Origin: a virus
Lineage: Duplodnaviria; Heunggongvirae; Uroviricota; Caudoviricetes
Strand: one strand, 5' to 3'
Length of the DNA stretch: 18,965 bases
IMG/VR virus record: IMGVR_UViG_2537561689_000013
Shown here: positions 1 through 18,965 of the stretch, piece after piece
Numbering within the stretch: position 1 is the stretch's first letter
How the letters are laid out: each line of letters begins with the position of its first letter
Position numbers and translations under genes: made by a program
The notes under the pieces: model-generated
What the model was told of the DNA's origin: nothing
The model's database searches: none
The model's input: only the letters and a program-made list of their open reading frames with translations

Positions 1-870
<870 letters not shown>

Positions 871-928: not shown

Positions 929-2932
929 ATGATTATGAGTGAAAATGATACAACCCCAAAGAAGTCTACAAGCCAGGTTAACAAAGCGGTATTCTTTACA
1001 TCTGCTTTGCTAATTTTCCTTCTTGTCGCCTTTGCCGCCGTATTCCCGGATGTCGCCGACAAAAATTTTAAACTACTTCAGCAACAAATCTTCACGAATG
1101 CCAGCTGGTTCTACATACTTGCTGTGGCCCTGATTTTACTGAGCGTCACGTTCCTTGGACTCTCACGTTACGGTGATATAAAGCTGGGCCCAGACCATGC
1201 GCAGCCTGATTTCAGCTACCACTCCTGGTTCGCGATGCTTTTTTCGGCAGGGATGGGGATCGGCCTGATGTTCTTTGGCGTTGCCGAACCTGTGATGCAT
1301 TATCTTTCGCCACCTGTCGGCACTCCAGAGACCGTTGCGGCAGCGAAGGAAGCCATGCGCCTGACGTTCTTCCACTGGGGTCTGCACGCATGGGCAATTT
1401 ATGCCATCGTGGCGCTGATTCTGGCCTTTTTCAGTTACCGTCACGGTCTGCCTTTAACGCTGCGTTCTGCGCTCTATCCCATTATCGGCGATCGCATTTA
1501 CGGGCCTATAGGCCACGCGGTTGATATCTTCGCCGTGATAGGCACTGTCTTTGGCGTTGCAACATCGCTGGGTTACGGTGTATTGCAGGTGAATGCCGGT
1601 TTGAACCATCTTTTCGGCGTGCCCATCAATGAAACGGTACAGGTCATTTTGATCGTGGTCATCACGGGGTTAGCGACGATTTCGGTGGTGTCCGGCCTGG
1701 ACAAGGGAATACGCATCCTGTCTGAGCTTAATCTGGGCCTGGCGGTGTTGCTCCTGGCGCTGGTCTTGTGCCTGGGTCCCACTGTGCTTCTGCTGAAGTC
1801 ATTTGTGGAAAATACGGGTGGTTATCTGTCGGAACTGGTGAGTAAAACGTTCAACCTTTACGCGTATGAACCCAAGTCGAGCAACTGGCTGGGGGGCTGG
1901 ACATTATTATACTGGGGATGGTGGCTTTCATGGTCGCCGTTTGTAGGTATGTTCATTGCACGCGTTTCCCGCGGCAGGACAATTCGTGAGTTCGTGACTG
2001 GCGTGTTGTTTGTTCCCGCCGGCTTTACGCTCATGTGGATGACGGTGTTTGGAAACAGCGCCATCTATCTCATCATGAACCAGGGCGCCACTGACCTCGC
2101 CAATACCGTTCAGCAGGATGTTGCGCTTGCCCTGTTTAATTTCCTGGAGCATTTCCCGTTCTCTTCCGTGCTGTCATTCATTGCAATGGCGATGGTCATC
2201 GTCTTCTTTGTAACGTCTGCTGATTCGGGGGCAATGGTTGTGGATACTCTGGCATCAGGTGGGGTGGCAAACACGCCCGTCTGGCAGCGAATTTTCTGGG
2301 CATTGCTCATGGGCGTTGTTGCTATTGCCCTGCTGATCGCAGGGGGGCTGAGTGCGTTGCAAACCGTAACGATAGCGAGTGCATTGCCCTTCTCAGTTAT
2401 CTTATTAATATCCATATACGGACTGTTAAAAGCCCTGCGTCGGGATTTGACCAAGCGTGAAAGCCTTAGCATGGCGACTATTGCTCCTACGGCTGCACGT
2501 AACCCAATTCCCTGGCAGAGAAGGTTACGCAATATCGCGTATTTGCCGAAGCGCTCTCTTGTGAAACGTTTTATGGACGACATTATCCAACCCGCCATGA
2601 CGCTGGTTCAGGAGGAACTTAACAAGCAGGGAACGATAAGCCACATCAGTGACGCCGCCGAGGATCGTATTCGCCTTGAAGTCGATTTGGGCAACGAGCT
2701 GAATTATATATATGAAGTGAGGCTTCGCGGGTATAACTCACCGACCTTCGCGCTCGCTGCGCTGGATAATGATGAGCAGCAGAGTGAACAACATCGATAT
2801 TATCGCGCTGAAGTCTATCTCAAAGAGGGCGGCCAAAATTATGATGTAATGGGCTGGAATCAGGAACAGCTGATTAATGACATACTGGACCAGTACGAAA
2901 AACACCTGCACTTCCTGCATCTGGTTCGTTAA
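929..2932 (+). CDS. BCCT-family transporter, BetT-like (choline/glycine betaine/carnitine type) with long C-terminal cytoplasmic extension
   Basis: 667-aa ORF with about 12 predicted TM segments and the BCCT signature region GWTLLYWGWWLSWSPFVGMFIARVSRGRTIREF. Clearly related to, but not identical to, E. coli BetT as I recall it, so no gene symbol is given. Confidence 0.9.
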   Translation: MIMSENDTTPKKSTSQVNKAVFFTSALLIFLLVAFAAVFPDVADKNFKLLQQQIFTNASWFYILAVALILLSVTFLGLSRYGDIKLGPDHAQPDFSYHSWFAMLFSAGMGIGLMFFGVAEPVMHYLSPPVGTPETVAAAKEAMRLTFFHWGLHAWAIYAIVALILAFFSYRHGLPLTLRSALYPIIGDRIYGPIGHAVDIFAVIGTVFGVATSLGYGVLQVNAGLNHLFGVPINETVQVILIVVITGLATISVVSGLDKGIRILSELNLGLAVLLLALVLCLGPTVLLLKSFVENTGGYLSELVSKTFNLYAYEPKSSNWLGGWTLLYWGWWLSWSPFVGMFIARVSRGRTIREFVTGVLFVPAGFTLMWMTVFGNSAIYLIMNQGATDLANTVQQDVALALFNFLEHFPFSSVLSFIAMAMVIVFFVTSADSGAMVVDTLASGGVANTPVWQRIFWALLMGVVAIALLIAGGLSALQTVTIASALPFSVILLISIYGLLKALRRDLTKRESLSMATIAPTAARNPIPWQRRLRNIAYLPKRSLVKRFMDDIIQPAMTLVQEELNKQGTISHISDAAEDRIRLEVDLGNELNYIYEVRLRGYNSPTFALAALDNDEQQSEQHRYYRAEVYLKEGGQNYDVMGWNQEQLINDILDQYEKHLHFLHLVR

Positions 2933-2939
2933 CAGCAAC

Positions 2940-2968
2940 ATGCCGCCACAGAGGCGGCATTTATTTAT
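2940..2968 (+). terminator. Rho-independent terminator downstream of the BCCT gene
   Basis: Hairpin ATGCCGCC-acaga-GGCGGCAT followed by TTATTTAT, starting 8 nt after the stop codon. Confidence 0.6.
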
Positions 2969-2995
2969 CCCGGCTGCAATATGAGGGAATGCAGA

Positions 2996-4273
2996 ATGAT
3001 TTCACGCTGGAAATGGATGCTGAAGCAGACATTTAAAAAACTATGGTTCAGGGCAACGTTATTCGCAATTGTCGCAATAATAACGGCCCTTTTATCAATT
3101 CTTTTTAAATCAATGATACCTGAGTCGGTTTCCGTGAAGGTTGGTGCGGAAGCAGTCGATAACATTCTGAACATACTGGCATCGAGTATGCTGGCAGTGA
3201 CCACATTTTCGCTGAGCATCATGGTCACAGCCTACGGTTCAGCCACTACTAATGTGACTCCCAGAGCTACTCGTTTAGTTGTTGAAGACGTCACCACACA
3301 AAATGTACTGGCCACCTTCATCGGTTCTTTTCTCTTCAGTCTGGTAGGGATTATTGCCCTCAATATGGGAGCTTATGGAGAAAGGGGGAGAGTCATTTTA
3401 TTCATTGTAACACTGGTTGTCATTGCCTTAATCCTCATCACATTGCTTCGCTGGATACAGCATTTGACCTCTCTGGGGAGGGTTGGTGAGACAACGGCAA
3501 AAGTAGAACAGGCGGCCATCGAAACATTTATTGCGAGAGCAAGAAATCCCTGTCTCGGCGGATATCCATGGCTTGAGAACAATGAACAGCCGAAAGGAAC
3601 GGTTGCAGTTTATCCGAAAAAGATTGGCTATGTTGAATATGTTGATATGGTGAAACTCAGCAAGCTGCTGACCAATGATCCCCGTCATGTATACCTCGTG
3701 GCGCAGCCGGGCAGTTTCATACATCCGTCCACGCCAGTTTTGTACCTGAGTCAGGGCCAGGAGTCATCAATCAGCACCGATTTACTTGAGACGATTATTG
3801 TCTCGGATGTACGTTCATTTGCTCAGGACCCCCGATTTTGTCTTAGCGTCATGGCCGAAATAGCCTGCCGAGCCCTTTCCCCCGCAGTGAACGATCCTGG
3901 AACCGCCATTGATGTCATTGGCAGAGGTGTACGTATACTTTCCGCTTACGCGCAGAATAAATCTGATGAAATAGAAGTGAAATATCCTTCTGTACATGTT
4001 GCACCACTTCAGAATAACGATCTACTTGAAGACTTTTTCTCACCTGTTGCGCGCGATGGTGCCAGTATGAGGGAAATTCAGATAAGGGTCCTTAAAGGAC
4101 TGTCGATGCTGAGTAAGGGTTGGCCTGGAATTTTTGCTGAAGCCGCACAAACCCTAGCATTTGAAACATTAGAGCATGCTACTCGTGCTGACCATATAGA
4201 TTCTGACAGATATCTAATAAAATCAATTTATTATAATTTATTTAGTGGCGAAGATTCTAATAAAAAACCATAG
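2996..4273 (+). CDS. DUF2254-like membrane protein (4 N-terminal TM helices plus soluble C-terminal domain)
   Basis: ORF 2981..4273. The preferred start is ATG 2996, because GAGGGA at 2983-2988 is a good SD for it. Hydrophobic N-terminal third; the SPAVNDPGTAID motif resembles the conserved motif I recall for DUF2254 proteins. Family assignment is tentative. Confidence 0.7.
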   Translation: MISRWKWMLKQTFKKLWFRATLFAIVAIITALLSILFKSMIPESVSVKVGAEAVDNILNILASSMLAVTTFSLSIMVTAYGSATTNVTPRATRLVVEDVTTQNVLATFIGSFLFSLVGIIALNMGAYGERGRVILFIVTLVVIALILITLLRWIQHLTSLGRVGETTAKVEQAAIETFIARARNPCLGGYPWLENNEQPKGTVAVYPKKIGYVEYVDMVKLSKLLTNDPRHVYLVAQPGSFIHPSTPVLYLSQGQESSISTDLLETIIVSDVRSFAQDPRFCLSVMAEIACRALSPAVNDPGTAIDVIGRGVRILSAYAQNKSDEIEVKYPSVHVAPLQNNDLLEDFFSPVARDGASMREIQIRVLKGLSMLSKGWPGIFAEAAQTLAFETLEHATRADHIDSDRYLIKSIYYNLFSGEDSNKKP

Positions 4274-4512
4274 TTGCGGAGCAAGCGATACGGTTGTTGG
4301 CAAGTCAAGGGCAAAGCATTCGCGTGAGAGTGGGCGTCTGCTTTGTGCCAGAAGCGGACATTGCGGCGTTACGGCACGTTAGGTCAGATATTTAAATGCA
4401 CATGGTCCGCTTGTGGCGGAAGGATACTTACAAGAGTTGGTGAGAGATAGTAAAATCAATATGAAAATTAAAATTCGGCAATAATTCCTGATATAGTCAT
4501 CTTAATGAACAT

Positions 4513-4539
4513 AAAAACTATCACAATAGGATAGTTTTT
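4513..4539. terminator. Perfect 10-bp inverted repeat (AAAAACTATC-acaatag-GATAGTTTTT) between convergent genes; possible bidirectional terminator
   Basis: Palindrome seen directly; sits 17 bp downstream of the minus-strand 231-aa gene. The stem is AT-rich, so terminator strength is uncertain. Confidence 0.4.
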
Positions 4540-4555
4540 ATGTCATACTTGTTAG

Positions 4556-5251
4556 TTAATCACTTAAGGAATGAAGTGAGGCTCGTTGTGCAGAGGTTAA
4601 GCTAAGGAGGATTTTTTCTCGATACTCAGGTGCAAAGGAAAAGAAAACATCAGGAAAAATTCTTATGATAGTTGATATCATAGTCTTAACCACCTTATCA
4701 ATCACCTTCGAAATATTATCTATTTTAACCAAGTCTATTTCGGGAAAAACATTTAAAGCTTTTATGTGAGCCATTTCTTTTACAGTAGCTGTATGTACGT
4801 GACTGCATAACGAAGAGTATTCAGCTTTTAAAGTTTCATGTAGTAGAGGATTTTTTTTGAAGACAGGATGTTCCCCAGTTTGTTCAATTACCTTAAACAA
4901 TGATTTTTCTTCAAGTATTGAAGGATCTAGTAAGCAACCGATTGATTTTAAAGAATTTTCAATATAACTTCGCATCATTAGATTTGCTGGTTTGTATGCA
5001 CCATTTATAACCATAAACATAGCTGTACCAAGGTCAGATGAAGCTTCTTGCAATCGCTCCAATGAGTTGGCGTCTATTTTCTCCTTGGAGAAATGATACA
5101 AACAGTAAACAAGGCACATAAAAGAATAATATCTCTTATGTATCATGCTTATTTTCCCTCTTGAGTTAATATTCTCGAAAACATTTTTTAATTTATATTC
5201 AGAGAAATAAGTAACTAACTCAGTGAAATCGCTGTTTACTTCTCTCGACAT
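4556..5251 (-). CDS. Hypothetical protein (231 aa), third gene of the AT-rich operon; no recognisable family
   Basis: Long ORF in a region of about 30% GC; start lies 2 nt after the stop of the upstream gene. No catalytic motif recognised by eye. Confidence 0.65.
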   Translation of the reverse strand: MSREVNSDFTELVTYFSEYKLKNVFENINSRGKISMIHKRYYSFMCLVYCLYHFSKEKIDANSLERLQEASSDLGTAMFMVINGAYKPANLMMRSYIENSLKSIGCLLDPSILEEKSLFKVIEQTGEHPVFKKNPLLHETLKAEYSSLCSHVHTATVKEMAHIKALNVFPEIDLVKIDNISKVIDKVVKTMISTIIRIFPDVFFSFAPEYREKILLSLTSAQRASLHSLSD

Positions 5252-5253
5252 TG

Positions 5254-5760
5254 TTAGTCCTTATTGAATATATCTTTTATAACTTCATTCCAGTCATATA
5301 TCTCATTTTGAGCGCTAGAAAGGTTCTTCCTCTCTTTTATTCTACTCAAAACTAGAGGGTTATTTGACATTGAATTGATAATATTATAAGCCTTACCTAA
5401 ATCGGATGAGTTTTTCTCGTGAACGTCACACACGATTATGCCGATCATTTCCTCTCTAGATCTTTTTTCAGGCCTGCTGATTTCGATACCTAACATGCGT
5501 GCAAAATCATCTATATCTTTATTTTTTTGGAAGAGATCTTTGTCTAATAAAATCCTCGGAAGATACCCAACAAGGAAACCTTTAATATCATTTTTTTTGG
5601 ACTTTGAATTTCTTTCGTTAACTTCTAAATTATCAGTATAACTATCTTGAAGTAATTCAATAAAGTTGATTCTTGATAATTTTTTTGAAATAAAGGAAAA
5701 CTCCTCTAAAAAGTTTAACAGTTGCTTAATTTCTTTTGAGTTATTTTTTTTGTCAGTCAT
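5254..5760 (-). CDS. Hypothetical protein (168 aa), Lys/Asn-rich, second gene of the AT-rich operon; no recognisable family
   Basis: ORF whose ATG overlaps the stop of the upstream ParA-like gene (ATGA overlap at 5757-5760), implying translational coupling. Confidence 0.65.
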   Translation of the reverse strand: MTDKKNNSKEIKQLLNFLEEFSFISKKLSRINFIELLQDSYTDNLEVNERNSKSKKNDIKGFLVGYLPRILLDKDLFQKNKDIDDFARMLGIEISRPEKRSREEMIGIIVCDVHEKNSSDLGKAYNIINSMSNNPLVLSRIKERKNLSSAQNEIYDWNEVIKDIFNKD

Positions 5761-6587
5761 AAGTCACCTACTCTAGAGAGAAGTTCGTCAGTAATTTTAG
5801 ACAGCGAAAACTTCATATCCTCATCCGTTAAATTGTTAATAAATAAGCCTCTTGTTTGATTTCTTGCCAACTCAGTACGTTTGCTCAAATATGATTTAAA
5901 GATCTTATTACGCCAACGTTTTTGATTATTGAAGTAACGAAGACTTTCCTCATATAAATTACTATTACCTTCAACCATATTAAAAACTATGCCCGCACAT
6001 TCAATCTTAAGATCGAAATTTTCTCTCTTCTCATTTATAATGCTATCTAATAGATCGATACCAGTGATCGAAAGAGGATCGGGTTTGGCTGGAATGAGGT
6101 AATAATCAGATGCAATTAATGCGCTGGACATCCAAACTGATGGGGTTGGTGGGGTATCAATTATGACATAATCATAGTCATTTTCATGGATTTTAAGAAA
6201 GCGTCTAAGCTTGTTTTCTATCCCTTCTCCTGGTTTCATTTCAATTTTATATAGCCCAAGGCTTCCGGGAACAATGTGAAAATTATCATTTAATTGAATT
6301 GGTGTTATATCGGCTAATTCTTTAGGTGTGTTAACTAAAGGACCAGTCATTGTAGATAGTCGAATTTTTGAACTATAAAAAATATCACATATGCTATCGC
6401 CTCCGCTTTTCATATGTGCAACATATTTGCTTGTATCCATTACACATTGCGTTGCGTTAAATTGTGGGTCGATATCTATTAATAATATTTTTTGCCCAAG
6501 TTTATCTGAAAGATGATTAGCAATATTGGTAGCCAATGTTGACTTACCAACGCCACCTTTCATATTGATTAAGCTAATAACTTTCAA
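5757..6587 (-). CDS. ParA/MinD-superfamily P-loop ATPase (deviant Walker A), first gene of the AT-rich operon
   Basis: N-terminal MKVISLINMKGGVGKSTLATNIA (KGGxGKST deviant Walker A), DIDPQ motif, Walker B-like YVIIDTPP. No N-terminal HTH extension, so it resembles small type Ib ParA/MinD-like ATPases. Confidence 0.8.
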   Translation of the reverse strand: MKVISLINMKGGVGKSTLATNIANHLSDKLGQKILLIDIDPQFNATQCVMDTSKYVAHMKSGGDSICDIFYSSKIRLSTMTGPLVNTPKELADITPIQLNDNFHIVPGSLGLYKIEMKPGEGIENKLRRFLKIHENDYDYVIIDTPPTPSVWMSSALIASDYYLIPAKPDPLSITGIDLLDSIINEKRENFDLKIECAGIVFNMVEGNSNLYEESLRYFNNQKRWRNKIFKSYLSKRTELARNQTRGLFINNLTDEDMKFSLSKITDELLSRVGDL

Positions 6588-6827
6588 TCTTCTTGCTCCT
6601 GTTTTGATTAACGCTAAGCTTTTTCATCAGCATTGAAATTTAACATGTGTTTTACAAACTTATGTCTTATCACTACCTTATCATTTTTTACATACACCAT
6701 AAATATTTTTAACTAAAAATTTTTGGTTTTCAACCTGAAATCTTTATCTTTAAAAACAAAACATTACAATATTTTTAGTAAGATACCTTACCTAATGTAA
6801 TGTGAATGGCTCAATTTTGATTAACAC
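6588..6827 (-). promoter_or_regulatory. Very AT-rich leader, presumed promoter region of the ParA-like operon
   Basis: About 240 bp of >75% AT immediately upstream of the operon start. No specific -35/-10 assignment made. Confidence 0.3.
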
Positions 6828-10182: not shown

Positions 10183-11466
10183 CTATGACCGTGAAAAGTA
10201 GTGATGGTTCAGTTCTTTTGCAAAATAGTGCTTACGTTTAACCCAGATAAAACCATCAGCTTTAGAAATGATTGCAACATCTATGGGGCCTCCCACTGTT
10301 TCAGTATCATCGGAGACCTTGCGCTTGAAAGCGGTTAAATTTACTAATGATTCAGCCATATAAGCTAAATCTTGCTTGGGTAAAAACTCGATCATATTTA
10401 CGACTTTGTCAACATAGTTTTCTCGGACAAAGCTATCAATACGCCCCTTGCAATCGGAAACAGTTCTGCGCACTACATCAACTATAGCATCCTTGGCTCC
10501 TTCGATATCTGAAGTGGGCACCAAATCTGTGATTACTGAATCAATACCATCAAGTAAATCGCCGATAGAACGTTGATACTCAGCATGAAGATTTTGGATA
10601 AGATGTGAACTAGCTCCTTGCATGAAAGCAGAAACTTCATCCTCTTGCGCAAAGGGAGTCACGCCGCAATTAGGAGTGATGCAGCACTTGTCAGCATCTG
10701 TGGTTTTCCTTATTTTATCATTAAAGAAGCCACAAACTTCATATGATAATACTTTAGGGTAATAGTCTTTATCGCCATAACCTGCAATCACAATCCCAGA
10801 GACGGAACCAATATCACTTTGCTTGCATATCATAGCTGCCAATACATCACTAACTGCTTTTGTCAACTGTGGAGTTATGGATATTGAATCAAAGTCACTA
10901 AACTTTTGAGCAATGATGCGTTGGGTAATTGATGAAGCATAGGTTTGGGCTGCTTGTTCATCATCCGGAGTAAAACCATCAAAGTAATTAATATCAGATA
11001 ATTTTGTAAGGAGATCGTTGCAATAATTCGTGAGGTCTGTAACAAATTGATTCTTATCGAAGTTAACGAGATATGTTGGTTCGAGACCTTCAGAAAAAGC
11101 ATCAACAAGCATGCTGAATACAATCTCGCTCAGGAAGTGATAAAGATGAGCCTCACGCATACCTGGTGTGATGATTGATTTAGCTGACTGTAGATAATTG
11201 AAGAAATCCTCAGCATATTCCTCCAAAGAGTCAAAACATTTAGAGCCTAAATCCTTTCTATAAGCCTTAATGATAAGCTCCCATGGAGCTGTGCAGAGAT
11301 CACCAGTTCCATATACCATCAAACCTACAGGATGATGTTTAGTGAGAGCGAAAAGCTTTTCAGCGCCATTATAGATTTTATGTTTGCCGCCTCCAGAAAT
11401 CGTTACAGCTGAATCTGCGGCTAAAGCTACTGCGGTCTTGTTAAATACGGCTATTTCTGCTGTCAT
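10183..11466 (-). CDS. Moron protein (427 aa) with HslV/proteasome-beta-like (Ntn-hydrolase, peptidase T1-like) N-terminal domain and uncharacterised C-terminal domain
   Basis: Starts MTAEIAVFNKTAVALAADSAVT: Thr directly after Met, Asp at mature position 17, then GTGD and GYGD glycine-rich segments. Compared by eye with HslV/proteasome-beta sequences recalled from memory. Opposite strand to the late genes. Confidence 0.8.
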   Translation of the reverse strand: MTAEIAVFNKTAVALAADSAVTISGGGKHKIYNGAEKLFALTKHHPVGLMVYGTGDLCTAPWELIIKAYRKDLGSKCFDSLEEYAEDFFNYLQSAKSIITPGMREAHLYHFLSEIVFSMLVDAFSEGLEPTYLVNFDKNQFVTDLTNYCNDLLTKLSDINYFDGFTPDDEQAAQTYASSITQRIIAQKFSDFDSISITPQLTKAVSDVLAAMICKQSDIGSVSGIVIAGYGDKDYYPKVLSYEVCGFFNDKIRKTTDADKCCITPNCGVTPFAQEDEVSAFMQGASSHLIQNLHAEYQRSIGDLLDGIDSVITDLVPTSDIEGAKDAIVDVVRRTVSDCKGRIDSFVRENYVDKVVNMIEFLPKQDLAYMAESLVNLTAFKRKVSDDTETVGGPIDVAIISKADGFIWVKRKHYFAKELNHHYFSRS

Positions 11467-12066: not shown

Positions 12067-13113
12067 ATGAAAAATACTGTAAAAATAAACAGTGTTGATT
12101 TAATCAACGCTGATTGCCTGCATTTTATTCAGTCCCTGCCTGATGATTCCATTGACCTGATTGTTACCGATCCGCCTTACTTCAAGGTGAAACCCAACGG
12201 TTGGGACAATCAGTGGAAAGGGGACGAAGATTACCTTAAGTGGCTGGACCACTGTCTGGCCCAGTTCTGGCGGGTGTTGAAACCTGCCGGAAGCCTTTAC
12301 CTGTTCTGTGGGCATCGCCTGGCATCTGATATCGAAATCATGATGCGTGAACGCTTTAATGTGCTGAACCACATTATCTGGGCGAAGCCGTCCGGACGCT
12401 GGAACGGATGCAACAAGGAAAGCCTGCGGGCGTATTTCCCGGCAACAGAGCGCATTCTGTTTGCTGAACATTATCAGGGGCCATACCAGCCCAAAAATGA
12501 CGGCTATGCGGCAAAGGGGCGCGAGCTTAAACAGTGCGTCATGGCCCCGCTGATTTCTTACTTTCGTGATGCGCGAGAATCTCTGGGAATAACATCAAAA
12601 CAGATAGCGGAAGCCACCGGAAAGAAAAACATGGCGTCACACTGGTTTGGTGCCAGTCAGTGGCAGTTGCCGAACGAGGCTGATTACAAAAAACTTCAGG
12701 CGCTGTTCGCGCGTGTTGCAGCAGAAAAACACCAGCGCGGGGAGCTGGAAAAGCCGCACCACCAGCTGGTCAGCACATACAGTGAACTGAACCGGCAATA
12801 TGCCAGCCTGCAGGAGGAGTATAAATCCCTGCGGCGTTATTTTTCCGTATCAGCTGCTGTTCCGTATACGGATGTCTGGACGCACAAGCCTGTGCAGTAT
12901 TATCCAGGCAAACATCCCTGTGAAAAACCGGCAGATATGTTGCGTCAGATAATTACTGCCAGCAGTCGCCCCGGTGATTTGGTCGCTGATTTTTTTATGG
13001 GGTCTGGCTCAACAATAAAAGCAGCACTTTCACTGGGACGTCGCGCAATTGGCGTGGAACTGGAAGAAGAGAGATTTAATCAGACTGTAACTGAAATAAA
13101 AAATAATCGTTAA
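12067..13113 (+). CDS. DNA methyltransferase, DPPY-motif class (N6-adenine or N4-cytosine), phage-type
   Basis: DLIVTDPPY (motif IV) near the N-terminus and DFFMGSGST (motif I) near the C-terminus, i.e. a beta-class amino-MTase arrangement. Comparable MTase genes sit downstream of Q in Stx-type lambdoid phages. Confidence 0.9.
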   Translation: MKNTVKINSVDLINADCLHFIQSLPDDSIDLIVTDPPYFKVKPNGWDNQWKGDEDYLKWLDHCLAQFWRVLKPAGSLYLFCGHRLASDIEIMMRERFNVLNHIIWAKPSGRWNGCNKESLRAYFPATERILFAEHYQGPYQPKNDGYAAKGRELKQCVMAPLISYFRDARESLGITSKQIAEATGKKNMASHWFGASQWQLPNEADYKKLQALFARVAAEKHQRGELEKPHHQLVSTYSELNRQYASLQEEYKSLRRYFSVSAAVPYTDVWTHKPVQYYPGKHPCEKPADMLRQIITASSRPGDLVADFFMGSGSTIKAALSLGRRAIGVELEEERFNQTVTEIKNNR

Positions 13114-13281: not shown

Positions 13282-13357
<76 letters not shown>

Positions 13358-13360
13358 TAT

Positions 13361-13435
<75 letters not shown>

Positions 13436-15390: not shown

Positions 15391-15483
15391 AAACTGACGC
15401 TGAAGTGCTGAACACCCTCAACTCACGCAGGCTCTTTTCTGGGGTTACGATGAGCGAAAGTAAGGGGTACCGCATCAGATAGC

Positions 15484-16078: not shown

Positions 16079-16372
16079 TTATTGTGAGCAATACACACGC
16101 GCTTCCAGCGGAGTATAAATGCCTAAAGTAATAAAACCGAGAAATCCATTTACGAATGTTTGCTGGGTTTCTGTTTTAACAACATTTTCTGCGCCGCCAC
16201 AAATTTTGGCTGCATCAACAGTTTTCTCCTGTCCAATTCCCGAAACGAAGAAATGATGGGTGATGGTTTCCTTTGGTGTTACTGCTGTCGGTTTGTTTCC
16301 AACAGTAAACGTCTGTTGAGCACATCCTGTAATAAGCATTGCCAGAGCGGCAGAAAACAACATTTTTTTCAT
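16079..16372 (-). CDS. bor: Bor lipoprotein (lambda-type serum-resistance protein)
   Basis: MKKMLFSAALAMLITGCAQQTFTV...GGAENVVKTETQQTFVNGFLGFITLGIYTPLEARVYCSQ is near-identical to lambda Bor as I recall it. Start set at the MKKM Met rather than the longer track ORF. Confidence 0.9.
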   Translation of the reverse strand: MKKMLFSAALAMLITGCAQQTFTVGNKPTAVTPKETITHHFFVSGIGQEKTVDAAKICGGAENVVKTETQQTFVNGFLGFITLGIYTPLEARVYCSQ

Positions 16373-17315: not shown

Positions 17316-17861
17316 ATGGAAGTCAACAAAAAGCAGCTGGCTGACATTTTCGGCGCGAGTATCCGTACCATTCAGAACTGGCAGGAACAGGGAATGCCCG
17401 TTCTGCGAGGCGGTGGCAAGGGTAATGAGGTGCTTTATGACTCTGCCGCCGTCATAAAATGGTATGCCGAAAGGGATGCTGAAATTGAGAACGAAAAGCT
17501 GCGCCGGGAGGTTGAAGAACTGCGGCAGGCCAGCGAGGCAGATCTCCAGCCAGGGACTATTGAGTACGAACGCCATCGACTTACGCGTGCGCAGGCCGAC
17601 GCACAGGAACTGAAGAATGCCAGAGACTCCGCTGAAGTGGTGGAAACCGCATTCTGTACTTTCGTGTTGTCGCGGATCGCAGGTGAAATTGCCAGTATTC
17701 TCGACGGGATCCCCCTGTCGGTGCAGCGGCGTTTTCCGGAACTGGAAAACCGACATGTTGATTTCCTGAAACGGGATATCATCAAAGCCATGAACAAAGC
17801 AGCCGCGCTGGATGAACTGATACCGGGGTTGCTGAGTGAATATATCGAACAGTCAGGTTAA
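17316..17861 (+). CDS. nu1: Terminase small subunit Nu1 (lambda-type)
   Basis: MEVNKKQLADIFGASIRTIQNWQEQGMPVLRGGGKGNEVLYDSAAVIKWYAERD... is essentially identical to lambda gpNu1 as I recall it (181 aa). Confidence 0.95.
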   Translation: MEVNKKQLADIFGASIRTIQNWQEQGMPVLRGGGKGNEVLYDSAAVIKWYAERDAEIENEKLRREVEELRQASEADLQPGTIEYERHRLTRAQADAQELKNARDSAEVVETAFCTFVLSRIAGEIASILDGIPLSVQRRFPELENRHVDFLKRDIIKAMNKAAALDELIPGLLSEYIEQSG

Positions 17862-18963
17862 CAGGCTGCGGCATTTTGTCCGCGCCGGGCTTCGCTCACT
17901 GTTCCGGCCGGAGCCACAGACCGCCGTTGAATGGGCGGATGCCAATTACTATCTCCCGAAAGAATCCGCATACCAGGAAGGGCGCTGGGAAACACTGCCC
18001 TTTCAGCGGGCCATCATGAATGCGATGGGCAGTGACTACGTCCGCGAGGTGAATGTGGTGAAGTCTGCCCGTGTTGGTTATTCCAAAATGCTGCTGGGTG
18101 TTTATGCCTACTTCATAGAGCATAAGCAGCGCAACACCCTTATCTGGTTGCCGACGGATGGTGATGCCGAGAACTTTATGAAAACCCACGTTGAGCCGAC
18201 CATCCGCGATATTCCGTCGCTGCTGGCGCTGGCTCCGTGGTATGGCAAAAAGCACCGGGATAACACGCTCACCATGAAGCGTTTTTCCAATGGTCGTGGC
18301 TTCTGGTGCCTGGGCGGTAAAGCGGCAAAAAACTACCGTGAAAAGTCGGTGGATGTGGCGGGTTATGATGAACTTGCTGCCTTTGATGAGGATATTGAAC
18401 AGGAAGGCTCTCCGACGTTCCTGGGCGATAAGCGTATTGAAGGCTCGGTCTGGCCAAAGTCCATCCGTGGCTCCACGCCCAAAGTGAGAGGCACATGCCA
18501 GATTGAGCGTGCAGCCAGTGAATCCCCGCATTTTATGCGTTTTCATGTTGCCTGCCCGCACTGCGGGGAGGAGCAGTACCTTAAATTTGGCGATAAAGAG
18601 ACGCCGTTTGGCCTCAAATGGACGCCGGATGACCCCTCCAGCGTGTTTTATCTCTGCGAGCATAATGCCTGCGTCATCCGCCAGCAGGAGCTGGACTTTA
18701 CTGATGCCCGTTATATCTGCGAAAAGACCGGGATCTGGACCCGTGATGGCATTCTCTGGTTTTCGTCATCCGGTGAAGAGATTGAACCGCCTGACAGTGT
18801 GACCTTTCACATCTGGACAGCGTACAGCCCGTTCACCACCTGGGTGCAGATTGTCAAAGACTGGATGAAGACGAAAGGGGATACGGGAAAACGTAAAACC
18901 TTCGTGAACACCACGCTCGGTGAGACGTGGGAAGCGGAAAATCGGCGAACGTCCGGATGCTGA
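17836..18963 (+). CDS. A: Terminase large subunit A (lambda-type), N-terminal 375 codons; reading frame breaks at about 18934 (apparent +1 frameshift) and the gene continues beyond the window in another frame
   Basis: MNISNSQVNRLRHFVRAGLRSLFRPEPQTAVEWADANYYLPKESAYQEGRWETLPFQRAIMNAMG... matches lambda gpA. The frame ends ...TLGETWEAENRRTSGC*, whereas the +1 frame after GAAGCGG reads KIGERPDAE, which is the lambda continuation. Confidence 0.85.
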   Translation: MNISNSQVNRLRHFVRAGLRSLFRPEPQTAVEWADANYYLPKESAYQEGRWETLPFQRAIMNAMGSDYVREVNVVKSARVGYSKMLLGVYAYFIEHKQRNTLIWLPTDGDAENFMKTHVEPTIRDIPSLLALAPWYGKKHRDNTLTMKRFSNGRGFWCLGGKAAKNYREKSVDVAGYDELAAFDEDIEQEGSPTFLGDKRIEGSVWPKSIRGSTPKVRGTCQIERAASESPHFMRFHVACPHCGEEQYLKFGDKETPFGLKWTPDDPSSVFYLCEHNACVIRQQELDFTDARYICEKTGIWTRDGILWFSSSGEEIEPPDSVTFHIWTAYSPFTTWVQIVKDWMKTKGDTGKRKTFVNTTLGETWEAENRRTSGC

Positions 18964-18965
18964 AG

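Follow-up and report, generated by a model that had tools for sequence, protein, structure and literature searches.

An extra G close to the end of a draft contig, probably a consensus error, shortens the terminase gene A of a lambdoid prophage in Escherichia coli p0305293.1

We found that the terminase large-subunit gene A at the right end of the window, the stretch of 18,965 nucleotides analyzed here, is cut short by one extra G. As far as can be judged from assembled sequences, this base probably reflects a consensus or assembly error near a contig end and not a biological feature. The window corresponds to the whole WGS contig AQEK01000046.1 of the draft assembly GCA_000356605.2 of E. coli p0305293.1. 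The extra G is located only 29 nt from the end of this draft contig, within its terminal tens of bases, and finished assemblies obtained independently for the clone or the prophage lack it: it is missing from all eight closed genomes in which the prophage spans 80% or more of the window, and two of these are otherwise identical to the window.

The shortened open reading frame extends from position 17836 to 18963 on the plus strand, starts with GTG, encodes 375 amino acids and was deposited as EMZ79105.1. Its translation ends with ...TLGETWEAENRRTSGC and is followed by the TGA at 18961–18963, a premature stop read in the shifted frame of the plus strand, 2 nt short of the contig end. This agrees with the first-pass annotation of this DNA, in which the gpA frame stopped there after 375 codons in a family of about 640 residues, and in which the +1 frame was seen to read KIGERPDAE. 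The latter frame is open from 18938 to the end of the window, and its KIGERPDAE (18938–18964, plus strand) is the authentic continuation of gpA, matching the intact gene of strains TW10722 and 602354; intact relatives encode 641 amino acids. A Pfam search of the window ORF detected the GpA_ATPase domain (PF05876) at residues 47–285 (E = 3.3e-51), followed by positions 2–55 of the 294 positions of the GpA_nuclease profile, the window stopping before the remainder becomes visible. In the intact 641-aa relative both domains are complete and positions 2–286 of the nuclease profile are covered, whereas the window ORF has no complete in-frame C-terminal GpA_nuclease domain.

The small subunit gene Nu1 (17316–17861, plus strand, 181 aa; Pfam Phage_Nu1) is intact and, like Nu1 of lambda, overlaps the beginning of A; its counterpart in the identical genomes is annotated as nohD or as a DNA-packaging protein. 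The lambda-type order is completed by W, the portal gene B and the protease gene C, which follow A in the otherwise identical genomes. Its domains and its synteny mark the gene as an ordinary terminase large-subunit gene A of the lambda type, as the first-pass annotation had proposed. The Nu1 gene and the 5′ part of A share about 98% DNA identity with phage 434. The resemblance to gene A of lambda and 434 (gpA of 641 aa, GpA_ATPase and GpA_nuclease) includes the Nu1-A overlap, the order of the domains and, as seen in the relatives, the downstream order A-W-B-C. The copy of the window differs in that it encodes the ATPase domain and only the first 50 or so residues of the nuclease domain. Just upstream of cos and Nu1, at the usual lambdoid moron position, is a Bor/Iss lipoprotein gene (16079–16372, minus strand), annotated as increased serum survival lipoprotein Iss in the identical genomes.

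The lesion itself was defined to the base. At positions 18936–18937 of the plus strand the window has GG in place of the single G of every relative, as seen by alignment, by BLAST trace and by exact comparison; the local sequence is GCGGAAAA in the window and GCGAAAA in the relatives. The extra G follows codon 367 of the window gene, and the site reads GCGGAAAATC with it and GCGAAAATC in the clone-mates. The first-pass annotation had called for an alignment to gene A of lambda; an alignment of this kind, with an Stx1a phage and phage 434, gave a single-base gap at GCG[G]AAAA. The lambda string given there was essentially right, the closest relatives reading GAAGCGAAAATC and phage 434 GAGGCGAAAATT. 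The two closed chromosomes ETEC-2265 (NZ_CP023346.1) and L5_E1779_ETEC (NZ_LR883006.1) match the whole window across 18,964 record bases, with 18,936 leading and 29 trailing bases identical. Because these add up to 18,965, exactly one inserted G (18936 or 18937) is the sole difference of the window, and the other 18,964 positions are those of ETEC-2265 and E1779 exactly. The BLAST trace against the closed ETEC chromosomes, '18935 G- 29', gave the same result. The full-length matches in 95 phage records were likewise all one base shorter than the query (1665 versus 1666), and the best E. coli matches, from 3,346 matching complete-genome records, covered 265 record bases for 266 query bases. These comparisons bear out the earlier attribution of the frameshift to one additional G, the exact base included.

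The extra-G allele was then sought outside the clone. It had no gapless match in any of the 3,346 matching E. coli complete-genome records and was not found in the 95 phage records; the string ACGTGGGARGCGGAAAATYGGCGAACGTCC, which contains it, had no exact match in the GTDB representatives, IMG/VR or the JGI metagenomes. The same string without the extra G was readily found, in at least 120 viral contigs of IMG/VR and in 27 genome contigs of the GTDB representatives, which makes these negative results meaningful. Among about 15 billion proteins, the exact 375-aa product EMZ79105.1 came from one contig only, AQEK01000046.1, where its gene occupies 17836–18963 of 18,965 nt. The lesion was not seen in independent sequences, in which a genuine frameshift pseudogene would be expected to recur, and its absence elsewhere gives no suggestion of a conserved or selected feature. 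This absence fits an error, and it also fits a genuine and very recent one-base insertion private to p0305293.1, an explanation that we consider unlikely. A private mutation would account for the presence of the G in GenBank, both in the contig and in the CDS deposited with it; the genome, phage and metagenome records searched contain no second example of this G. An alteration of the window relative to the public record was ruled out, since EMZ79105.1 carries exactly the same truncated sequence.

As a separate observation, a wild-type 29-mer of gene A occurred in short, often low-coverage contigs of GTDB representatives from unrelated taxa (Chromatium weissei, Kitasatospora papulosa, Prevotella pallens, Veillonella, Bradyrhizobium, Paenibacillus and others). 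The pattern suggests that these draft assemblies were contaminated with lambda DNA.

Gene A is also interrupted in most of the closest relatives, at another place. In six of the eight closed genomes (ETEC-2265, E1779, 120899, 103605, 204446 and 504237), it consists of two pseudogene pieces split by the IS66-family element ISCro1 with its tnpA, tnpB and transposase genes. The two others, TW10722 and 602354, have an intact A of 641 codons (WP_001027321.1) followed by the W, portal and protease genes. ISCro1 begins with GTAAGCG about 180 bp past the end of the window, at about codon 436 of A, and occupies positions 25143–27841 of the compared ETEC-2265 stretch; the same arrangement was found in a second compared relative. 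On both sides of the element stands the 8-bp direct duplication CGATGAAC, and the A frame picks up again behind it with QTLLRVDEAINKTYTRR; the junction of the element with the C-terminal part of gpA reads …CCGGTTAC|CGATGAACAGACGCTG. The start motif, the gene order and the 8-bp duplication are those of ISCro1 of the IS66 family, and the sequence signatures at these ends identify a bona fide transposition. The element lies outside the window. Its presence in A of p0305293.1 itself is inferred from the identity of the window to IS-bearing genomes and from position 15471, the one SNP by which the two groups differ, which is C in the window and in the two IS-bearing genomes compared and A in both genomes with an intact A.

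These data bear on several of the earlier proposals. The full-length C-terminus that the first-pass annotation proposed to look for is present in the two relatives with 641 residues, and the frame is split in the other six. A disruption of the downstream frame, named there as a sign of general decay that would refute a single indel, does exist in the closest relatives: ISCro1 splits A in six of the eight, and the ETEC-2265 prophage has further IS and tail lesions. The window itself contains one additional G only. In ETEC-2265, IS3 and IS100 follow the replication genes in the early region; in the tail region (18043–19322 of a second compared stretch of this genome), frameshifts are annotated in the gpI-like tail assembly gene and the gpK-like C40 peptidase gene, and the tail-fibre gene is cut short. 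These tail frameshifts may be real decay or indel errors of that assembly. For the idea of a private mutation, the ISCro1 insertion is a favorable context, since a gene that is already a pseudogene in six of the eight closed relatives would be under relaxed constraint; the C at 15471 shared with the IS-bearing genomes and the further decay of the ETEC-2265 copy point in the same direction. If real, the insertion would probably be neutral, a second hit on a gene that ISCro1 had inactivated before in this sublineage; were ISCro1 missing from p0305293.1, the extra G would instead be the primary cause of a packaging-defective prophage.

Both ends of the contig were then considered. The left end consists of a fragment of IS100 (IS21 family; 1–766, minus strand) and lies inside a multicopy repeat: the first base of the window corresponds to base 6001 of the compared ETEC-2265 stretch, inside istA (5659–6681), strain 602354 matches the window only from 767 onward, and positions 1–759 are 100% identical to an IS100 copy elsewhere in a compared closed genome record. 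The right end falls about 180 bp short of the place where ISCro1 is inserted in the identical relatives, and so not at an IS boundary; ISCro1 is itself multicopy, with 8 to 11 places per genome record. The association of both ends with multicopy IS elements is as expected of a short-read draft. Strain p0305293.1 is listed in a table among the ETEC isolates sequenced at GSCID (PMC4309559); elsewhere in the literature searched, its name occurs only in one unrelated preprint. The same sequencing programme is described in PMC4462620 as having used Illumina HiSeq2000 paired-end reads and the Celera Assembler, with coverage above 200x and, on average, 212 contigs per genome; the method is assigned to p0305293.1 by project association, as that main text does not name the strain.

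The position of the G bears on the choice between the two explanations. A real mutation would fall within the last 30 bases with a chance of about 30/18965, or 0.16% per mutation, and this improbability weighs against a private mutation that would be the sole difference in 18,965 bases and lie 29 nt from the contig end. The absence of any difference in the 18,935 interior bases indicates that real divergence from the clone-mates is essentially nil, and the location of the extra G 29 nt from the end strongly favors a sequencing or assembly error. In draft assemblies generally, the consensus is weakest at contig termini, where it depends on few reads and on their ends, and the error rate is raised there. 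The window shares with draft contig-end errors a singleton indel within 30 nt of the terminus, which the clone's closed genomes lack, and ends associated with multicopy IS elements; it differs from such errors in general in that the case is deduced from the assembled sequence, and in that an indel is less usual than a substitution for Illumina data. Indeed, the Illumina chemistry rarely produces indels and more usually substitutions. This, together with the change of G to GG, a homopolymer of minimal length, and the contig break some 180 bp away from the IS boundary, speaks against an error, which we nevertheless hold to be the likely explanation.

A contig-end error would operate as follows. 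An insertion miscalled in the last 30 bases of the contig would shift the frame of gene A; the shifted frame would then run into a TGA with only 2 nt of the contig left, and an apparently complete CDS of 375 amino acids would be recorded. The real gene of p0305293.1 would most probably read GCGAAAATC, as in the clone-mates, and, to judge from these, would run into ISCro1 about 180 bp further on. It would then be ISCro1, and not the G, that inactivates the terminase in this lineage. The two possibilities raised by the first-pass annotation, a cryptic prophage or a sequencing error, were both apt, and the error is favored. Should the prophage be packaging-defective, the extra G would probably not be what makes it so.

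A third explanation, that a programmed or tolerated +1 ribosomal frameshift still allows full-length gpA to be made, is scarcely credible. Its support is circumstantial: the shifted frame contains the adjacent arginine codons CGG CGA, and no stop interrupts the authentic frame between the insertion and the end of the contig. The codons CGG and CGA are rare in E. coli. The allele is, however, a singleton, and gpA occupies a single frame in thousands of relatives; by inspection, the sequence GCG GAA AAT CGG CGA has no recognizable +1 or −1 slippery motif at which a P-site tRNA could re-pair; and A is also interrupted by an IS further downstream in most of the closest relatives. A programmed frameshift was rejected on these grounds, as the two-frame architecture is not conserved, all homologues are single-frame and inspection shows no slippery motif. 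We attach an equally negligible weight to the idea that the G is real and that a stable gpA reduced to its ATPase part (375 aa), or full-length gpA restored by a low-level +1 shift at CGG-CGA, has some effect on packaging or interferes with superinfecting lambdoid phages.

The prophage occupies the Qin site, with a truncated ydfJ on one side and rspB on the other, and contains int, xis, an exonuclease gene, dicB and cI/cro-like genes. Qin of K-12, a defective lambdoid prophage, has hokD, dicB and the Nu1 homologue nohA. With such Qin-site prophages the ETEC element shares the site, hokD, dicB, ydfB/ydfC and ylcI/ynfO-type genes, as well as erosion by IS elements. Unlike Qin, the ETEC prophage keeps nearly all its head and tail genes together with int and xis, and the terminase lesion of the ETEC relatives is a discrete ISCro1 insertion and not a large deletion. 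Several other genes of the window are of separate interest. Between IS100 and hokD, the prophage carries a cargo block (929–6587) that encodes a BCCT transporter (929–2932), a DUF2254 protein (2981–4273) and a minus-strand cassette of three genes, namely a ParA-like ATPase (5757–6587) and proteins of 168 and 231 amino acids that lack a convincing family match. An ORF of 427 codons (10183–11466, minus strand) between the Q antiterminator and a DNA methyltransferase gene has no Pfam or PADLOC match and is a prophage moron. The methyltransferase (12067–13113, plus strand) is a type II-like N6/N4 enzyme (PADLOC MTase_II, E = 2.5e-151), and the window's annotated genes include no restriction partner for it. 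Behind it come genes for tRNA-Thr(TGT) and tRNA-Gly(TCC) at 13282–13435 on the plus strand.

The lesion belongs to a familiar class in either case, as a spurious frameshift at a contig end or, failing that, as a prophage pseudogene, and nothing about it is novel. It carries little biological weight, and its practical lesson concerns data quality: the 'complete' terminase CDS EMZ79105.1 in GenBank is most likely an artefact, produced by a miscall at the contig end, and frameshifts this near the edge of a window or contig, within a few tens of bases, are unsafe for calling a prophage cryptic. What remains for the biology of these strains is a Qin-site lambdoid prophage common to eight closed ETEC genomes, in which the terminase is knocked out in six and intact in two.
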